A DNA stretch of 43,466 nt from the sequence record OM272052.1. One strand, 5' to 3'. Of the stretch, positions 3,341-37,857 are shown in pieces; the stretch's first letter is position 1, and each line of letters starts with the position of its first letter. The DNA is from Escherichia phage fBC-Eco01. The notes beneath the pieces were generated by a model that was given only the letters and a program-made list of their open reading frames with translations, was not told the origin of the DNA and ran no database searches. Both the position numbers and the translations under genes were made by a program.

Positions 3341-3346
3341 AGAAAA

Positions 3347-3376
3347 AGGCCCCACTACGGGGCCTTAGTTTTATTT
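3347..3376. terminator. bidirectional intrinsic terminator
   Basis: GGCCCC-ACTAC-GGGGCC hairpin flanked by A-run upstream and T-run downstream; lies between convergent portal and antisense gene. Confidence 0.6.
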
Positions 3377-3892
3377 AAATCTTGCAGGCATTAACACCAT
3401 AAAGGCCGTGTTTGAAAATTGTATTTTGCATCCTCTGGTTTGGTCCTGGAAATCGAAACGAGCAATTTCATTTTTGTATGCCTTAGAAATCTTGTACGCG
3501 TCTGCCAAATAGCGCAGAGTGAACCCTATACTATCGACAACACCCGGTGTGATGTGCGCCACGCGTCTCCAGTCAGGAAAGTTTCCTTCTACAACATCTA
3601 CCGGAAGTGTACATATAAGCGCACGATTATCGTCATAGAAAGATACACTGCCGTTGTCGTGGTTTACCTCCGCGTAGTTAAATTTAGAAGGCTCTCTCCC
3701 TTTGATGTCTATGAGAGTCCCTTTCTCAACGTTGGTCTTCACATTGTCGCAGAACAATCTATGACCGTCCGTAGACACTATCAATCCTTCAGGGTCTATG
3801 TAAAAAGCGTTCAAATAGTAGCGAACATCATTTTTAGCCCTGCATATTTTCGCCCCTACATACGCAGGGAAAGTAATTACTGTAGTAACCAT
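3371..3892 (-). CDS. hypothetical protein (antisense accessory gene, moron)
   Basis: 173 aa ORF on opposite strand to flanking head genes; RBS AGGAGA 6 nt upstream of ATG; own promoter copy and terminator; no family recognised. Confidence 0.6.
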   Translation of the reverse strand: MVTTVITFPAYVGAKICRAKNDVRYYLNAFYIDPEGLIVSTDGHRLFCDNVKTNVEKGTLIDIKGREPSKFNYAEVNHDNGSVSFYDDNRALICTLPVDVVEGNFPDWRRVAHITPGVVDSIGFTLRYLADAYKISKAYKNEIARFDFQDQTRGCKIQFSNTAFMVLMPARFK

Positions 3893-3919
3893 TTTGCGTC
3901 TCCTGTTTAAGTTAACTGA

Positions 3920-3948
3920 ATAGTACCCTATTATATTGGTGTCTGCAA
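3920..3948 (-). promoter_or_regulatory. conserved promoter element copy A (TTGCAG-N17-TACTAT, minus-directed)
   Basis: minus-strand reading TTGCAGACACCAATATAATAGGGTACTATTCAG; matches copies at 6064, 15132, 37795. Confidence 0.45.
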
Positions 3949-3992: not shown

Positions 3993-5036
3993 ATGAGCTT
4001 ACTTACATCTCTAATCAGTCACCAGATATGGCTGCAACGCGCCGCATCCGGTGAAGTGAAAGACCTTACGCCGTTTCTTCAGGAGATGCGGGACGAAATC
4101 AAACGGCAGGTGCTGTTATTCGGCGATGACGGGCGAAGCACCGCGCGACTGAATAAATTGTTACGTGACCTCGAAGAAGCACTAATGGGACTTACAGGCG
4201 ACTGGCAAACAAAGCTGACAGAAGACCTTAAGGAACTGGCGGCGTATGAGGCTGAGTGGAACGTAAAAACGCTGACCACCAACGTAAACGCGGAATTTGT
4301 TACACCTACCGCTGAGCAGGTATGGGCCGCCGCCGAGTTTCAACCGCTCTCATTAAGCGACAAGCCGGTTGATTTCACTAAGCTGATGTCGGGATGGGGT
4401 GAAACCGAAGTAGCACGTCTCGTAACCGGCGTTAAGATGGGCTTTGTGCAAGGTCAGACAACACGGCAGATTGTTAAGAATGTTGTTGGCGCTGGTGGGC
4501 TGGCGGACATATCCGAGCGTAACGCAGCTACGGTAATCCGCACCGCGCTGTCTCACGTATCCAACGAAGCCCGCAACGAGACGTACCGACAGAACGACGA
4601 CATCATCGAGAAGTACGAGTGGGTGTCAACGCTAGACAGCCGTACCAGTACGATTTGTAGGGCCAGAGACGGAATGACGTGGGAAATCGGTAAGGGGCCG
4701 ATGCCCCCGGCCCATTTTGGGTGCCGAAGTACCACGGCACCTGTAATCAGTTCAGAGTTCGACTTCCTCGATAAAGGTGCAAAACGTGCGGCTAAGGGCG
4801 CGGACGGAGGTACTCAGGTAAGCGCAGACACCACTTACTACGAGTTCCTGAAACAACAACCGGCGTGGTTCGTGGACGAAGCACTCGGGCCGACCCGCGG
4901 TAAGATTTTCCGCAACAGCGGTATATCGCCGGAAGAGTTTCGCGTAATATCTGTAGATGGTTTCGGGCGTCCGCTTACTATTAAAGAGATGGCGGAACTC
5001 GATAAACGTGTTGCTGATTATCTGAAAGGGGAATAA
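3993..5036 (+). CDS. head morphogenesis protein (phage Mu F / SPP1 gp7-like minor capsid protein)
   Basis: RBS AGGAGGG before ATG 3993; C-terminal motif TICRARDG...HFGCRS typical of the Mu F family. Confidence 0.8.
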   Translation: MSLLTSLISHQIWLQRAASGEVKDLTPFLQEMRDEIKRQVLLFGDDGRSTARLNKLLRDLEEALMGLTGDWQTKLTEDLKELAAYEAEWNVKTLTTNVNAEFVTPTAEQVWAAAEFQPLSLSDKPVDFTKLMSGWGETEVARLVTGVKMGFVQGQTTRQIVKNVVGAGGLADISERNAATVIRTALSHVSNEARNETYRQNDDIIEKYEWVSTLDSRTSTICRARDGMTWEIGKGPMPPAHFGCRSTTAPVISSEFDFLDKGAKRAAKGADGGTQVSADTTYYEFLKQQPAWFVDEALGPTRGKIFRNSGISPEEFRVISVDGFGRPLTIKEMAELDKRVADYLKGE

Positions 5037-5497
5037 TGATGGGCTTTTTCAAAGTAACCGATGTACCGTCGCGTCGCGTAGTCCAGTACGCCCGCGTGTC
5101 AGGCTCCGGCGAGAACGTGACCTACGTTGAAGATGAAAGTGTACTGGGTACACCTGTAGACGAGATGCCGTATGCAGATAAAACCGGTATTGCGCTACCG
5201 GCGGCGGGGATGCTTTACGAGATTCCGTATCTGGCAGACGCTGGTGACGTGTATTTCTCTGTGCAACCGAAAGACACCGAGCTGGTCGACGGTAGCGCCA
5301 CCATCACCGTCGAAGTTAAGGCAGGTAAAGCGCCGTATGTACTGACCTGGTACAAAGACGGGAAGGAAGTGGTGAACGCCCCGGAAGAGGCTCTGTCTCT
5401 GACTGTTAATGCGGCTGGTGAATACTTCGTTAAAGTTACTGATGCTGATGGGGTAGAGGCGGTAAGCAAGGCGGCGAAGGTTACTAAGCCAGAATGA
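5036..5497 (+). CDS. hypothetical protein, possible Ig-like capsid decoration protein
   Basis: 153 aa, start overlaps upstream stop; beta-rich C-terminal segment resembling Ig-like domains; followed by terminator. Confidence 0.5.
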   Translation: MMGFFKVTDVPSRRVVQYARVSGSGENVTYVEDESVLGTPVDEMPYADKTGIALPAAGMLYEIPYLADAGDVYFSVQPKDTELVDGSATITVEVKAGKAPYVLTWYKDGKEVVNAPEEALSLTVNAAGEYFVKVTDADGVEAVSKAAKVTKPE

Positions 5498-5501
5498 TAA
5501 A

Positions 5502-5528
5502 AGGCCCCGTTAAGGGGCTTTATTTTTA
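5502..5528 (+). terminator. intrinsic terminator
   Basis: GGCCCC-GTTAA-GGGGC hairpin followed by TTTATTTTTAT. Confidence 0.5.
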
Positions 5529-5593
5529 TATGAACATCGCGGTGATAACCGCAGCCGATACCCACAAAACAACATAAAACATCACACTATTTG

Positions 5594-5938
5594 TCATTTG
5601 CATTTCTCGTCGTATGTTTGTTGTAACTGCGACAGACGATTACCGGCTGTCATCTCGTCCATAGAAGGCCCAGCGCCTGTGTCCATAAAGAACAGCGGAA
5701 CAAACAGGAATGCGCCTGTAACACCGAGTACAACGTTAGTACCTATTTGCTTATTAACACGGTGCGTAGCGTTGGCTTGAGCTTGTTTTGTCGTGGCGAT
5801 TCTCGATAGTAACTGATTACATGTTGCCGTTGTATCCCCTGCCTGATAAACCTGTAAAGCTGGGTCTGGCAACGACCTTACGCAACCACTCAAACAAACG
5901 GCTACAACACCTGCTACTGCTAATTTAATATATTTCAT
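5594..5938 (-). CDS. putative lipoprotein (accessory)
   Basis: 114 aa; N-terminal signal with lipobox LSGC (MKYIKLAVAGVVAVCLSGC); hydrophobic segment near C-terminus; antisense to head genes. Confidence 0.6.
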   Translation of the reverse strand: MKYIKLAVAGVVAVCLSGCVRSLPDPALQVYQAGDTTATCNQLLSRIATTKQAQANATHRVNKQIGTNVVLGVTGAFLFVPLFFMDTGAGPSMDEMTAGNRLSQLQQTYDEKCK

Positions 5939-6036
5939 AGTTCGCCATTACCCGTGTCAATGTCACCAATACCACTACAAGCCCAAAGAAACATCACCGC
6001 ATCAACTGCAATTACTACTGAAATAACGACTAACAT
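5935..6036 (-). CDS. small hydrophobic peptide (33 aa), translationally coupled to lipoprotein
   Basis: ATG preceded by strong RBS GAGGAGG at 5 nt; stop TGA overlaps lipoprotein ATG (ATGA); sequence MLVVISVVIAVDAVMFLWACSG... Confidence 0.4.
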   Translation of the reverse strand: MLVVISVVIAVDAVMFLWACSGIGDIDTGNGEL

Positions 6037-6063
6037 GACGGCCTCCTCGGTTCGATAGAATGA

Positions 6064-6092
6064 ATAGTACCCTATTATATTGGGGTGCGCAA
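6064..6092 (-). promoter_or_regulatory. conserved promoter element copy B (TTGCGC-N17-TACTAT, minus-directed)
   Basis: minus-strand reading TTGCGCACCCCAATATAATAGGGTACTATTCA about 27 nt upstream of the small peptide ATG. Confidence 0.5.
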
Positions 6093-6134
6093 ACTATTTG
6101 TTTATGTATTCCAGTTATTCCACTCAATTGTAAA

Positions 6135-6163
6135 TGTTGGAATAAACTATTCGAATAGTTGAC
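6135..6163 (+). repeat. TGTTGGAATAA-N-TATTC-TTGAC motif copy 1 (candidate late promoter/activator site)
   Basis: TGTTGGAATAAACTATTCGAATAGTTGAC; a second copy at 6917-6940 precedes the scaffold gene. Confidence 0.3.
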
Positions 6164-6187
6164 TTTTCACCAAAAATGTGCTAAGCT
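6159..6187 (+). promoter_or_regulatory. candidate sigma70-type promoter (TTGACT-N17-TAAGCT)
   Basis: -35 TTGACT, 17-nt spacer, weak -10 TAAGCT; upstream of terminator-bounded leader and spanin genes. Confidence 0.3.
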
Positions 6188-6193
6188 CCACCT

Positions 6194-6394
6194 GAGCTTG
6201 TGAAGTATGAACAAGCGACCGCGGCGTGGCAGGTAACGGAGCCGGACGTTAAGTCCGAGTGTAGTTACGCTGACGCGTTCGGAAGGGCCATACTCTATTG
6301 CTTGTGTAAAAAGTAACTGGTTTACTGAGATTACGCCGTTTCTATGTTTAAATGATAAGGACTAGCGCCCCGCTTTAAGGCGGGGCTTTACTTA
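6194..6394 (+). ncRNA. candidate ~200-nt non-coding leader/sRNA ending in terminator
   Basis: no ORF longer than about 10 codons between the candidate promoter and the GCCCCGC-TTTAAG-GCGGGGC hairpin; followed by spanin RBS. Confidence 0.25.
6367..6394 (+). terminator. intrinsic terminator / attenuator upstream of spanins
   Basis: 7-bp GC-rich stem GCCCCGC/GCGGGGC followed by TTTACTTA. Confidence 0.5.
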
Positions 6395-6410
6395 TCGAGA
6401 AAGGGGAAAC

Positions 6411-6797
6411 ATGAATCTTAAAGCAACTGTCGTAGCCGGAGCATGTTTCGTCGTCCTAGCCTACGCACACGGCATCTATCAATACCGCAGCGGCTGGGGT
6501 GAAGGCCGTGCTAATCTCGTTTCGCAGCAACAGCAGAAAGCACAGGCTGAGCTGACGAAGAAAACACAACGGCAGCAGCAGGATGAATCAAAGGCCGCAA
6601 CCGCCGACAACGAAGGCAAGACGAAATCAGAGGTGATTACCCGTGAAGTCGTTAAGTACATTAAAACGCCTGGCCGCAGCGTGTGCACTTTCGATGATGC
6701 TCGCGTCCTGCTCAAGTCCCGCGCCGTCGCCAATGCCAATTCCATCCCCGGATACGACGATGATGCAGCCGCCGTGCAAACTGGCGCCACCAAGTAG
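6411..6797 (+). CDS. i-spanin (Rz-like)
   Basis: 128 aa; N-terminal transmembrane segment, Q/K/E-rich coiled-coil region, C-terminal Cys; contains embedded lipoprotein ORF in another frame. Confidence 0.55.
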   Translation: MNLKATVVAGACFVVLAYAHGIYQYRSGWGEGRANLVSQQQQKAQAELTKKTQRQQQDESKAATADNEGKTKSEVITREVVKYIKTPGRSVCTFDDARVLLKSRAVANANSIPGYDDDAAAVQTGATK

Positions 6798-6906
6798 CGA
6801 CGCCGATGGGGATTTAGCTATCGACGTTCAGAACGCCGAATGTGCACGGCAACTGAGACTGAAAGTGTTCATGTTGCAGGATTACGTGAGGAATATTCTG
6901 GAATAG
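6643..6906 (+). CDS. o-spanin (Rz1-like lipoprotein, overlapped with i-spanin)
   Basis: GTG start; signal peptide with lipobox LASC followed by Pro-rich region; starts inside and runs past the i-spanin ORF. Confidence 0.55.
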   Translation: MKSLSTLKRLAAACALSMMLASCSSPAPSPMPIPSPDTTMMQPPCKLAPPSSDADGDLAIDVQNAECARQLRLKVFMLQDYVRNILE

Positions 6907-6916
6907 TTGCCTTGCA

Positions 6917-6940
6917 TGTTGGAATAATTTATTCTTGACA
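6917..6940 (+). repeat. TGTTGGAATAA-N-TATTC-TTGAC motif copy 2
   Basis: TGTTGGAATAATTTATTCTTGACA upstream of scaffold gene. Confidence 0.3.
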
Positions 6941-6988
6941 TGTAAATCCGGGTGGCCCGGGTTCCAACGTCCAGGGGACATACTGACT

Positions 6989-7690
6989 ATGAATCGTTTT
7001 TTACGTTATCCGTTCCAGGAAGAAGCTGGGGCAGAAGATAAAGCTGGCGGCGGTGACGTGCCGAAAATGTTCACCGCTGAAGAAGTTCAGGCGCTGATTG
7101 AGAAAGAAGTTGCCGGGCTTAAGGCCAATCAGGAAGCATTGCTGGCGGAGAAGAAAGAAGCCGCTCGCAAAGCAAAAGAGGCCGAAGAAGAACGGCAGCG
7201 TGCACACCAGGAGGCGTTAAAAGCCGCTGGTAAGATGGACGAGTTCGAAAAAACGATTCGTAGCCAGTATGACCCGGTGTTAGCCGAGAAAGATGGTCGC
7301 ATCTCCAGAATGGCAGAGCGCATCCTCGGCAGCGAACGTAAAGCAGTGTTAGGCTCTTTCGCAGGTGACTTCATCACCCCGGAAGCAGTAGACATCCTTG
7401 CGCCGTTCGTTAAGACTGAGTTCGAAGGCGATGACGTGGTTACTAAGTTTGTTGGTGCAGACGGCAACGTAATCACAACTGACCCGGAACAGTTCCGCAA
7501 GTACCTGCGCGAACACAAAGCGTTTTCGCATTTGATTAAAGCAAATGCAGCTTCCGGCGGCGGGGCTTCCGGTGGCAAAGGCGGCGGGGCCGCACCAGCG
7601 TTTAAAGACATGAGTGAAGCGGAGCGTTTAGCTCTGTATAAATCGAACCCTGCCGAATTTGAACGGCAACTTAAAGCCCTGAGGAAATAA
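6989..7690 (+). CDS. scaffolding protein (putative)
   Basis: ATG 6989 chosen in the 6935..7690 frame; charged, alanine- and lysine-rich coiled-coil composition; immediately upstream of major capsid gene. Confidence 0.55.
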   Translation: MNRFLRYPFQEEAGAEDKAGGGDVPKMFTAEEVQALIEKEVAGLKANQEALLAEKKEAARKAKEAEEERQRAHQEALKAAGKMDEFEKTIRSQYDPVLAEKDGRISRMAERILGSERKAVLGSFAGDFITPEAVDILAPFVKTEFEGDDVVTKFVGADGNVITTDPEQFRKYLREHKAFSHLIKANAASGGGASGGKGGGAAPAFKDMSEAERLALYKSNPAEFERQLKALRK

Positions 7691-14898: not shown

Positions 14899-15090
14899 TC
14901 ACTTCTCTTTGACATTCGAGTTGCAAGCCCAGATTAAAATAAATACCCACGGCAGCAGAACCCAGCCGAGAAACAGATTAGCCATGAATATCGCCAGTTT
15001 CGCTTTATGTCCGCGCATATGGGCCACTAAAAACGGGATAAAATAAACTAAAACGATAATGATTAAGAAGAACATAGTAATACCTGTCAT
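14899..15090 (-). CDS. superinfection immunity-like small membrane protein (Imm-like)
   Basis: 63 aa from ATG 15090 with RBS AGGAG; two hydrophobic helices with RGHKAK...NLFLGW...PW motif as I recall it for the Imm-like family. Confidence 0.5.
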   Translation of the reverse strand: MTGITMFFLIIIVLVYFIPFLVAHMRGHKAKLAIFMANLFLGWVLLPWVFILIWACNSNVKEK

Positions 15091-15131
15091 GGTGTAGCTC
15101 CTGTTTGAGTTAACATTGTTGGTGTAAGTGA

Positions 15132-15160
15132 ATAGTATCCTATTATGTTGGGGTGCGCAA
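15132..15160 (-). promoter_or_regulatory. conserved promoter element copy C (TTGCGC-N17-TACTAT, minus-directed)
   Basis: minus-strand reading TTGCGCACCCCAACATAATAGGATACTATTCAC, 28 nt identical to copy D. Confidence 0.5.
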
Positions 15161-23234: not shown

Positions 23235-25259
23235 ATGTCAAGCGGATGCGGTGACGTTTTAAGCCTGGCGGATTTACAAACCGCCAAAAAACACCAGATT
23301 TTCGAGGCTGAGGTTATCACCGGTAAATCTGGTGGCGTTGCAGGTGGTGCAGATATCGACTATGCCACTAACCCGAACACCGGCCAAGTTCAAAAAACTA
23401 TGCCAGCCATTCTGCGCGATATTGGGTTCGAACCAGCGTCTTTTGATTTTACATCTGGCGGTACTCTTACCCCGAACGACCGTAACAAGGCGGTTTTATG
23501 GCCTATGGCGGATGGTGGTGATGGCGACTGGTATTACTGGGAGGGCACGCTGCCGAAGGTCATACCAGCCGCGTCTTCACCGTTAACGGCTGGAGGTATT
23601 GCCGAGGGGGCATGGCGGCCTGTGGGGGATATCACGCTGCGCGAAGAGCTTCTTGAGTCTGTTTTGGTTATGAATGGTGCTCGATTTGCCCTTCGAGACA
23701 TTCATTCTGCGCTTGATTTTGCGGGTGTAGTTGCTGATGGCGTGACTGATGTGACTACCGCACTGCAAGCGGGCATCGATTCCCTGCCCGCCGGTAGCGC
23801 TCTGCTGTTTACAGGCGGGACATTCCTGTTCGATAAGGTCACGATTAGCAAGCCACTCACTGTAACCGGCGACGCAGAGATGGTTCACAATGGGTTTCGA
23901 ATTAAAACCAGTAACTTCACATCCACCCTGCTTGGCAAGCAGCAAAGTCGAACCTACGGCAGCCAATCACGTTGTTTTGAAATACGTGCGTATGAAGATG
24001 CTGCTGATTACGAAAACATCAAGATCCTGTTCAACGACATGGCGGGGTTCTTCTATTCGACTGATTTTCGCGGTCGTGAATATTCAGCCGCACCAAACGA
24101 CCCCGCCAACAGAGTGGTAAAAAATACGCTGATTATGGGTTGCACCTCAACGGCCCCCGCCGGTCAGGCTGCTGGTAACTACCAGCACATAGGCATAACT
24201 AACGCCAAGTGCATAGGTAACTCAGCCTATAACGGAGTAAACGCCTCAAGCTACAACTTTATAAACGGCAACGGGTATCTGATAGTTACCGGGAATTATG
24301 ACGACAACAACACCTACGGTTCGCTTGAGATAGAAAACAACCTAGTTTCTCATGCGACGATCTCAGGCAACACATTCAAAAAGCAGTTGTGGGTAGACGA
24401 TACAAGCAACGTCTCCATCGTCGGAAATACCGTGTCAGACAGGATTTTCCTTACTGCGCAGAGTAATGATACCGATAACATTACTGTGTCGGGGAATACC
24501 TGCACGAGGCTGTCAGCCACCACATTTGGACCGATTGAGGAGCAAATAGGGAGGCATAAAGGGATTCATGTCATTGGTAATACGTTCTATGGTGAGGCGG
24601 GGGTTAATGATATCTTTGCCGATGGTCACGTTGATTGCATCACTATTGAATCCAATGCATTGAATGGGGTCGATAGTAACGCCATCGCATTGGTGCGCAG
24701 CCCAACATGTAACCACATGGTGCGTAATAACCGCAGTAAAGTGACTCGCGCCTTGGCAATCTCCGGGTCTGGTGGCCGGGTTGTTGAGTATGGCAACGAC
24801 AATATAACCCTTTCTGGTACGTCCGAAAGTCATCACATCTCAAACCTCATGCAGCCAAGTTTAGATTTTCTTGACCTGCCTGGGCGTTACCTGCACAGCA
24901 CTAAGTACACGGGGTCTATCGCGCCGCTCGGCTCTGCCTCCCTATCCCTGCCAATCCCAGATAGTGCTGGGCTGGCATTCAGGGGGGTGTCACTGTGGGT
25001 GATGATAAGGGATGCCGTGACCAATAATATATCTATCTACAGAATTGATGGTGTATACAAAGCCGTTGGGGCTTCGATACAGCTGTCTTTTAGTACGCCC
25101 TATTCGGCATTTGGTGTCGACACTGCATCGATTAATGTTGCTAATAACGCTAGCACATCGAATAGCATCAATATCCTTGTGTCTAACACTCATGTGACGA
25201 AAATATTACAGGTTACTGTTATGCCTGAAGTGACAAGCAAACTTGGGACTGAGGAGTAA
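23235..25259 (+). CDS. tail fibre / tailspike protein with parallel beta-helix-like repeats
   Basis: 674 aa, RBS AAAGAGGA; recurring xGNT/xGNx repeats (ISGNTFKK, VGNTVSD, VSGNTCTRL, VIGNTFYGE) typical of pectin-lyase-fold tailspikes. Confidence 0.6.
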   Translation: MSSGCGDVLSLADLQTAKKHQIFEAEVITGKSGGVAGGADIDYATNPNTGQVQKTMPAILRDIGFEPASFDFTSGGTLTPNDRNKAVLWPMADGGDGDWYYWEGTLPKVIPAASSPLTAGGIAEGAWRPVGDITLREELLESVLVMNGARFALRDIHSALDFAGVVADGVTDVTTALQAGIDSLPAGSALLFTGGTFLFDKVTISKPLTVTGDAEMVHNGFRIKTSNFTSTLLGKQQSRTYGSQSRCFEIRAYEDAADYENIKILFNDMAGFFYSTDFRGREYSAAPNDPANRVVKNTLIMGCTSTAPAGQAAGNYQHIGITNAKCIGNSAYNGVNASSYNFINGNGYLIVTGNYDDNNTYGSLEIENNLVSHATISGNTFKKQLWVDDTSNVSIVGNTVSDRIFLTAQSNDTDNITVSGNTCTRLSATTFGPIEEQIGRHKGIHVIGNTFYGEAGVNDIFADGHVDCITIESNALNGVDSNAIALVRSPTCNHMVRNNRSKVTRALAISGSGGRVVEYGNDNITLSGTSESHHISNLMQPSLDFLDLPGRYLHSTKYTGSIAPLGSASLSLPIPDSAGLAFRGVSLWVMIRDAVTNNISIYRIDGVYKAVGASIQLSFSTPYSAFGVDTASINVANNASTSNSINILVSNTHVTKILQVTVMPEVTSKLGTEE

Positions 25260-37794: not shown

Positions 37795-37823
37795 TTGCAC
37801 ACCCCAACATAATAGGATACTAT
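37795..37823 (+). promoter_or_regulatory. conserved promoter element copy D (TTGCAC-N17-TACTAT, plus-directed)
   Basis: TTGCACACCCCAACATAATAGGATACTATTCAC upstream of the rightward small-gene cluster. Confidence 0.5.
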
Positions 37824-37857
37824 TCACGTATCGGGACGAGACAGAGGAGTGAGGGTT

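Follow-up and report, generated by a model that had tools for sequence, protein, structure and literature searches.

A swappable three-gene lipoprotein cassette in a Kagunavirus genome, a possible add-on for exclusion or protection at the cell envelope

What does a small lipoprotein gene, transcribed antisense between a head decoration gene and the spanin genes, contribute to a strictly lytic phage? The question is raised by positions 5594-6092 of the genome sequence of Escherichia phage fBC-Eco01 (record OM272052.1), the whole stretch of 43,466 nucleotides (nt) being referred to here as the window. An earlier sequence-only reading described an antisense two-gene cassette, consisting of a hydrophobic peptide and a lipoprotein, and suggested that it masks the phage receptor in the manner of the lipoproteins Llp and Cor and thereby excludes superinfecting phages. 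The cassette is real, it has three genes instead of two, and it is a swappable accessory unit. Its tentative interpretation here is that of an envelope-acting add-on for exclusion or protection, which would leave the phage's own tailspike receptor unmasked.

With about 97% identity to phages SZH-1, BUCT823 and phiSD1, the window is assigned to the genus Kagunavirus (Guernseyvirinae). The region 5400-6500 is matched at 93-97% identity by eight Escherichia and Shigella phages of this genus (the three named and HSE2, Golestan, SCS44, phiEc4 and K-02); coverage of the query region was at least 80% in just 10 of 180 matching records. The neighbours of the cassette are a gene for a Hoc-like head decoration protein (5036-5497, +) on one side and the Rz/Rz1 pair on the other.

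Anatomy and variation of the cassette

The first open reading frame (ORF) on the minus strand, at 5935..6036 (-), encodes a micro-protein of 33 residues, MLVVISVVIAVDAVMFLWACSGIGDIDTGNGEL, with a hydrophobic helix at the N terminus and an acidic tail, free of basic residues, at the C terminus. The Shine-Dalgarno sequence GAGGAGG (6042..6048, -) is located 5 nt before its ATG and is the sole strong ribosome-binding site of the cassette. The TGA of this ORF overlaps the start codon of the lipoprotein gene in an ATGA (5938-5935). The precursor of 114 residues (5594..5938, -) begins with MKYIKLAVAGVVAVCLSGC and carries a signal peptide, the lipobox LSGC with Cys19, and Val at +2; its signal reads MKYIK-LAVAGVVAVC-LSG-C19, i.e., n-region, hydrophobic core and lipobox cysteine, and it is by sequence a genuine lipoprotein precursor. 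In these points, namely the membrane peptide with its strong ribosome-binding site, the overlapping stop and start codons and the lipobox, the sequence-only reading was confirmed. It had overlooked, however, a third gene for a wholly hydrophobic micro-protein of 23 residues, MTNSVMFYVVLWVSAAVITAMFI (5526..5597, -), the ATG of which overlaps the TGA of the lipoprotein gene in a second ATGA (5597-5594); from another in-frame ATG at 5603, a product of 25 residues could start alternatively. The unit is followed by a bidirectional intrinsic terminator (5501-5521, both strands; stem-loop and T-run), which is shared with the convergent Hoc-like gene and is kept in relatives, where the alignment revealed compensated changes in the loop.

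In the window, the lipoprotein gene lacks a separate ribosome-binding site. In a divergent metagenomic relative, contig L016, from which the 33-residue ORF is missing, the lipoprotein gene starts with GTG after a purine-rich leader, GGGAGAGAGAGAGGAA; the presence of an own ribosome-binding site only where the 33-residue ORF is gone fits translational coupling through this ORF in the window. The antisense and coupled arrangement described earlier can be retained, with a corrected number of genes.

Substitutions were counted in an alignment of the cassette to sequences of six relatives from GenBank and two contigs from metagenomes. All three ORFs are under purifying selection. Proportions of non-synonymous (pN) and synonymous (pS) changes were 0.128 and 0.625 for the lipoprotein gene compared with L016 (81% protein identity), 0.117 and 0.911 for the 23-residue ORF compared with L016 (about 6.3 non-synonymous and 13.7 synonymous changes; Fisher p 3e-9), and 0.28 and 0.77 for the 33-residue ORF compared with its homologue in phage K1H (Fisher p 5e-5). 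Both the frame and the stop codon of the 23-residue ORF are preserved in L016, and the ORF is present in all 10 GenBank records carrying the lipoprotein; every kagunavirus lipoprotein found is accompanied by it. No hydrophobic micro-ORFs were detected flanking 79 other members of the lipoprotein family. The 33-residue ORF is conserved in eight phages. Its K1H homologue, MMVAISFVLLVNLGLFVWAVSGVEDADSGNGEL, has 17 of 33 residues identical, stands alone in the slot, and possesses a strong ribosome-binding site of its own and a terminator directly 3' of the gene. Co-occurrence of peptide and lipoprotein as a fixed pair was not found, with the peptide alone in K1H and, in L016, the lipoprotein and the 23-residue gene without it. 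Probably, all three ORFs are genes and form two modules.

The tail of the 33-residue protein contains an acidic motif, D-x-D-[TS]-G-N-G-E-L (5960-5941, -), which is common to the window and K1H and loosely resembles cation-binding loops of the DxDxDG type; the hydrophobic part is strongly diverged between the two, the tail motif notwithstanding.

Upstream of the cassette, 24 nt before the ATG of the 33-residue ORF, lies a promoter-like element of 32 nt, TTGCGCACCCCAATATAATAGGGTACTATTCA (6061..6092, -). Its two possible readings are TTGCGC-17 nt-TACTAT and a perfect TATAAT (6079-6074) with a poor -35 hexamer. The 32-mer TTGCNCACNCCAAYATAATAGGRTACTATTCA is present in four copies in the window, compared with 0 expected by chance, and each copy is directly upstream of a transcription unit. 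The sister copies precede a 173-residue clamp-like gene (copy at 3917..3948, -; gene at 3371-3892, -), a gene for a protein of 63 residues of the Imm_superinfect family with a downstream exonuclease gene (copy at 15129..15160, -; gene at 14899-15090, -) and, at 37795..37826 (+), the start of a rightward block of small genes, this copy being present also in Golestan. Golestan has three copies and is without the extra clamp-like gene. The repeats support the earlier designation of the element as one copy ("B") of a promoter, and it is regarded here as a putative promoter with deduced activity and timing.

Four variants of the slot (window, K1H, L016 and phage Snoke) have the same sequence through to the 3' edge of the element, and directly beyond it their sequences are unrelated. 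The cargo which follows is the 33-residue gene alone in K1H, the complete set of 33-residue gene, lipoprotein gene and 23-residue gene in the window and the eight phages, the lipoprotein gene with the 23-residue gene in L016, and a 173-residue clamp-like gene in Snoke; other listed records of partial coverage are annotated likewise. The guanine-plus-cytosine (GC) content of the cassette is 44.2%, versus 53.7% and 53.8% in the flanking genes, which is in the lowest 6% of sequence windows. A promoter-like element, cargo and a terminator, combined with patchy occurrence and a deviant composition, give the cassette the architecture of a moron.

The clamp-like gene occurs also in the window, where it is located antisense between the portal and head-morphogenesis genes. 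Its product is a relative of the DNA polymerase III beta-clamp and of phrog_3007. The unit has its own copy of the 32-nt element and ends in a bidirectional terminator (3346-3366). Snoke and other kagunaviruses have this gene in the slot between the Hoc-like gene and the spanins, and it is absent in Golestan; its location in different slots indicates that a promoter-plus-cargo unit was moved between them.

The lipoprotein and its relatives

The sole library family which matched the lipoprotein was phrog_13472, of unknown function (E-value 5.7e-44; residues 3-114 on positions 1-113 of the 113 of the profile). Scans against Pfam, NCBIfam and PADLOC brought nothing relevant, a profile search of the PDB gave zero sequence matches, and scans of 52-64 homologues against Pfam and NCBIfam yielded only SHOCT tails and fortuitous hits on signal peptides. 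An exhaustive profile search produced 942 homologous clusters (50% identity) at E-values up to 1e-3, and 426 of them have 1e-10 or better. All source names seen are "hypothetical" or "uncharacterized", with a single DksA label as exception. The family extends over many diderm lineages, among them Gammaproteobacteria, Rickettsiella, Legionellales, Wolbachia, Francisellaceae, Omnitrophota, Phycisphaerae and Deferribacterales.

Alignments of 52, 64 and 117 sequences have the lipobox cysteine throughout; the family-invariant residues are Cys19, D35, C40, N68, G75, R101, L105 and C113, and a hydrophobic motif, N-x-x-LGVxGxFLxVP[LW]FFMD, occupies residues 68-86. Asp at +2 was found in 0 of 79 family loci and therefore, under the E. 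coli rule, sorting to the outer membrane is predicted. In AlphaFold models, residues 40-75 and 93-113 are helices which would form a hairpin, with the hydrophobic motif as a poorly defined connector at its tip. Basic residues precede the hydrophobic segment and acidic ones follow it, which opposes stop-transfer; from this and from the invariant C40 and C113 we infer that the mature protein is wholly periplasmic. A disulfide between C40 and C113 probably clamps the hairpin, and the hydrophobic tip may be embedded peripherally in a membrane or in a partner. That segment 69-85 spans the membrane as a helix was considered and appears unlikely because of the flank charges and since C40 and C113 would then face opposite sides of the membrane.

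Some relatives have additional parts. A C-terminal SHOCT domain (PF09851) was present in 6 of 52 aligned family members (e.g., P0015, P0017, P0024 and P0028 among the tailed homologues of the alignment), and others possess long low-complexity tails, rich in Pro, Ala and Thr, after the conserved C-terminal cysteine. One bacterial homologue (L022; metagenome-assembled genome of a gammaproteobacterium, JAXHLS010000002.1, 600-9000) is located beside a tyrosine integrase gene, with a toxin-antitoxin-like pair of Gp49 and helix-turn-helix type and NERD/UvrD-helicase genes as further neighbours, i.e., in a mobile island with defence-like content.

Homologues were also found in 11 viral contigs outside Kagunavirus. 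In four P22-like contigs (L003, L005, L006 and L008), which are probable prophages, the homologue follows directly after a gene-16-like ejection gene; in L003, the sole P22-like contig with a confirmed downstream tailspike, it is upstream of mnt/arc/ant and the tailspike gene. In two other contigs (L007 and L009), its neighbours are the tailspike gene on one side and the gene for a large structural protein of the virion on the other. In P22-like prophages, sieA resides between genes 16 and 9 (PMC10883804). The P22-like contigs had no near match in E. coli genomes or phages, and their proteins showed at most about 29% identity to those of known phages.

Possible functions

In the tentatively preferred reading, a horizontally acquired accessory cassette of the moron type, inserted in the Kagunavirus slot between the Hoc-like gene and the spanins, would act on the envelope as an exclusion or protection module. 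The 32-nt element, as a host-type promoter, would fire leftward; ribosomes would load at the one Shine-Dalgarno sequence, translate the 33-residue single-pass micro-protein, and pass via ATGA to the lipoprotein and via the second ATGA to the 23-residue micro-protein, until the unit is ended by the bidirectional terminator. After export, Cys19 of the lipoprotein would receive the lipid anchor, and the lack of Asp at +2 would direct the protein to the inner leaflet of the outer membrane. The mature protein would form a periplasmic alpha-helical hairpin, the open end of which is probably clamped by the C40-C113 disulfide, and the invariant hydrophobic loop at the tip could dip into a membrane leaflet or dock on a partner. 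By such remodelling of the envelope of the infected cell, later phages would be hindered at or after penetration of the outer membrane, which would amount to broad superinfection exclusion. The 23-residue peptide could be a Kagunavirus-specific partner of the lipoprotein, and the 33-residue peptide an independent, older resident of the slot, which now would serve also as translational entry point.

Broad exclusion is plausible from the placement of homologues in the P22-like contigs and from the Imm_superinfect gene of the window, which is preceded by a copy of the same 32-nt element; the same promoter type on that gene plausibly counts for an exclusion-type role. Of the module proposed in the sequence-only reading, this much is kept, and receptor masking is not supported. 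A more specific version, according to which the lipoprotein family was recruited by kagunaviruses and P22-like podoviruses as a replacement of SieA and blocks the delivery of DNA across the envelope, with the 23-residue micro-protein cooperating in kagunaviruses, appears rather unlikely.

Several observations weigh against exclusion. The shared sieA interval is guilt by association, and the phage already has an Imm-like gene. No homology links the lipoprotein family to any function in Pfam, NCBIfam, PADLOC or the PDB; the AlphaFold models are of low confidence (predicted local distance difference test, pLDDT, 64-66), and fold searches returned generic helical hairpins only. A generic sigma-70 scan called no minus-strand promoter for the cassette and no good -35 hexamer; it missed the element because the -35 matches in only 3 of 6 positions. 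Promoter scans at two viral-contig loci with homologues were uninformative. The majority of the family is encoded on the chromosomes of various diderm bacteria, intracellular ones included, and this spread suggests a general envelope role over an anti-phage one. Neighbourhood clustering of 80 bacterial loci revealed no conserved partner, the only shared neighbours reflecting synteny within a clade, in a few related loci starting from Rickettsiella.

The lipoprotein could be a captured factor of general envelope homeostasis, which alters the outer membrane or periplasm (stability, stress, or resistance to serum or antimicrobials, as with lambda Bor) and has no direct anti-phage activity. An overwhelmingly bacterial, chromosomal family, spread over many phyla and even reduced intracellular genomes, the lack of a conserved operon partner, the SHOCT tails of some members and the recent capture suggested by the low GC content would be in agreement with this. 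Yet long-term fitness factors of the host would be of little gain to a strictly lytic phage, the recurrent placement by ejection-protein and tailspike genes in podovirus-type contigs points to a phage-related role, and a phage-specific 23-residue partner gene was added, which is under purifying selection; this explanation is considered not very probable.

Masking of the Llp or Cor type would mean that an outer-membrane lipoprotein inactivates the phage's own protein receptor from the periplasm and so blocks superinfection and the loss of progeny on debris. A phage-encoded lipoprotein with predicted outer-membrane sorting, encoded by an accessory gene of patchy distribution, is compatible with this. 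Llp and Cor are small, fast-evolving lipoproteins, and missing homology is thus weak evidence against an analogous function. The Cor family (phrog_1119) was reached only at E 0.3 with 12.5 bits over residues 1-37, i.e., the signal peptide and the first mature residues. Scans at E-values up to 1 found no Llp-type family in PHROG, Pfam and NCBIfam, a pairwise comparison with Llp itself not being part of them, and no other lipoprotein or exclusion family in these libraries, PADLOC being scanned as well. The cassette is in the head module at 5.5-6.1 kb and not beside the tail-tip and tailspike genes at 20.6-25.3 kb; cassettes of about 97% DNA identity are combined with tailspikes sharing only the N-terminal 7-20% with that of the window; and the homologues in bacteria and podovirus-type viral contigs occur with unrelated receptor-binding genes. 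Moreover, kagunaviruses reportedly depend on O-antigen or capsule glycans via their tailspikes, and no protein receptor is known for them (PMC11990801). Near-identical cassettes with different tailspikes and the glycan receptors argue against masking of the phage's own receptor, and the proposal of the sequence-only reading seems quite improbable.

An accessory function in lysis, in which lipoprotein and micro-peptides would tune holin, spanin or outer-membrane disruption, the timing of lysis or a block of premature lysis, has proximity in its favour. The genes for the Rz spanin (6411-6797, +; phrog_2536, E 1.2e-54) and the Rz1 spanin (6643-6906, +; phrog_5672, E 8.6e-29) are close, with 375 nt between the cassette and the start of the i-spanin and a common divergent control region. 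Lysis systems typically hold tiny hydrophobic peptides and lipoproteins, and the modelled hairpin with its hydrophobic tip is vaguely like membrane-active proteins. But the sets of holin, endolysin and Rz/Rz1 are complete without the cassette, and in the annotation of Golestan the holins and endolysin are about 35 kb away from its locus; most kagunaviruses do without the cassette, the listed ones carrying the unrelated clamp-like gene in the slot; transcription is in the opposite direction from an own promoter, of a type common to non-lysis genes; and the homologues in bacteria and viral contigs are not beside lysis genes. Such a function is held to be unlikely. The lipoprotein as a spanin was rejected, since the 114-residue protein matched no spanin family in PHROG or Pfam, is encoded on the opposite strand, and a bona fide Rz/Rz1 pair is present elsewhere. 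The separation of the cassette from these spanins, which match PHROGs of their own, had been recognized earlier; they were called downstream at that time, whereas they are divergently transcribed.

Accessory slots of lytic phages often carry anti-defence genes, and the envelope products could perhaps neutralise membrane-associated defence of the host or its prophages, such as abortive infection or exclusion. Some kagunaviruses of the BASEL collection plate only on E. coli K-12 without cryptic prophages (PMC11990801), and the integrase-bearing island with NERD/UvrD-type genes harbours one bacterial homologue. No PADLOC or anti-defence family was matched, a periplasmic lipoprotein would be an unusual anti-defence effector, and bacterial loci are generally without linkage to defence genes; counter-defence is judged highly improbable.

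Neighbouring features and known systems

Between the cassette and the spanins, a unit of about 190 nt (6161-6390, +) is enclosed by a promoter-like sequence (TTGACT, 17 nt, TAAGCT; 6161-6189) and an intrinsic terminator (6367-6386); the unit is kept in 9 kagunavirus sequences, comprising all four slot-cargo variants. Indels of 1-2 nt in relatives break the ORF of 36-38 residues annotated in Snoke and K1H, and a small non-coding RNA is therefore likelier here than a protein. An Rfam scan of 5400-7000 gave no RNA family match, including this unit, which has too little variation for covariation analysis. An 18-mer, TGTTGGAATAAWYTATTC, is present twice, at 6135-6152 and 6917-6934 (+), with 0.13 copies expected by chance; each copy is immediately upstream of a plus-strand -35-like hexamer, TTGAC(T/A), and the copies precede the RNA-like unit with the spanins, and the scaffold and capsid genes, respectively. 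The 18-mer region forms an inverted repeat, TTATTCCA...TGGAATAA, at 6115-6145. The 18-mer may serve rightward promoters as the binding site of a regulator or as an UP-like site; as promoter of the cassette it was rejected, since both copies (6135, 6917) are on the plus strand and belong to rightward promoters.

The Imm_superinfect gene (14899-15090, -) encodes a membrane protein with two helices, a member of the T4 Imm family (PF14373; E 8.7e-14, 51.6 bits versus a cut-off of 27.9) and is located antisense in the tail module, followed by the exonuclease gene. The tailspike gene (23235-25259, +) has no more than its N-terminal anchor in common with other phages, at most 20% of its length, and its receptor-binding part had no nucleotide match among 50,697 phage records; probably, the phage has a glycan specificity which is not yet represented.

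The sequences of the cassette are already in GenBank as hypothetical proteins. What is added here is the third ORF, the finding that the slot is modular and its promoter shared, the extent of the lipoprotein family with its conserved features, and the location of homologues in the sieA interval. If the exclusion reading is true, a new protein family, absent from Pfam, NCBIfam and PADLOC, would join the few envelope-level exclusion systems, more than 900 clusters of conserved lipoproteins from bacteria would receive a first functional lead, and micro-proteins of 23-33 residues, which are usually ignored by annotation, would be selected parts of phage accessory modules. Whatever the function, the slot, with its conserved 32-nt promoter, exchangeable cargo and terminator, could serve for engineering; kagunaviruses are already under discussion as a small chassis for synthetic phage work (PMC11990801).

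Comparison with known systems shows partial likeness in each case. The match to phrog_13472 is full-length and the family is unannotated; it was extended here to 942 mainly bacterial clusters with conserved features. With Llp of T5 and Cor of phi80, N15 and HK022, which inactivate FhuA, the protein has in common that it is a small phage lipoprotein with a lipobox, encoded as an accessory, with predicted action from the periplasmic face of the outer membrane and a conserved pair of cysteines suggesting a disulfide. Unlike these, it is without detectable homology to them and neither adjoins nor co-varies with a receptor-binding gene, and it has an invariant hydrophobic loop, a huge bacterial family, two flanking micro-protein genes and a phage with glycan receptors. 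The o-spanins of the Rz1 type are likewise small phage lipoproteins with periplasmic cysteines, encoded near the i-spanin gene; the lipoprotein of the window, in contrast, is on the opposite strand and is neither embedded in nor adjacent to the i-spanin frame. Likeness to SieA of P22 is in genomic position only, since homologues, though not the gene of the window, occupy the interval between genes 16 and 9. SieA is a multi-pass protein of the inner membrane which blocks the DNA-delivery conduit of gp16 and gp20, and it has a cytoplasmic motif, FxRYPxEAxxFNK (PMC10883804); this motif is absent from the lipoprotein of the window, which has one hydrophobic stretch past the signal peptide. In common with the lambdoid morons (bor and lom of lambda, gp15 of HK97), the cassette has a promoter-like element and a terminator of its own, an orientation opposite to the late genes, lower GC content, patchy occurrence among close relatives and an envelope-targeted product. 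The cassette differs from them in being part of a virulent siphovirus, in a promoter which is a phage-wide repeat also driving core genes, and in a slot which, in kagunaviruses, swaps whole cargos, i.e., the peptide only, the lipoprotein module or the clamp-like gene.

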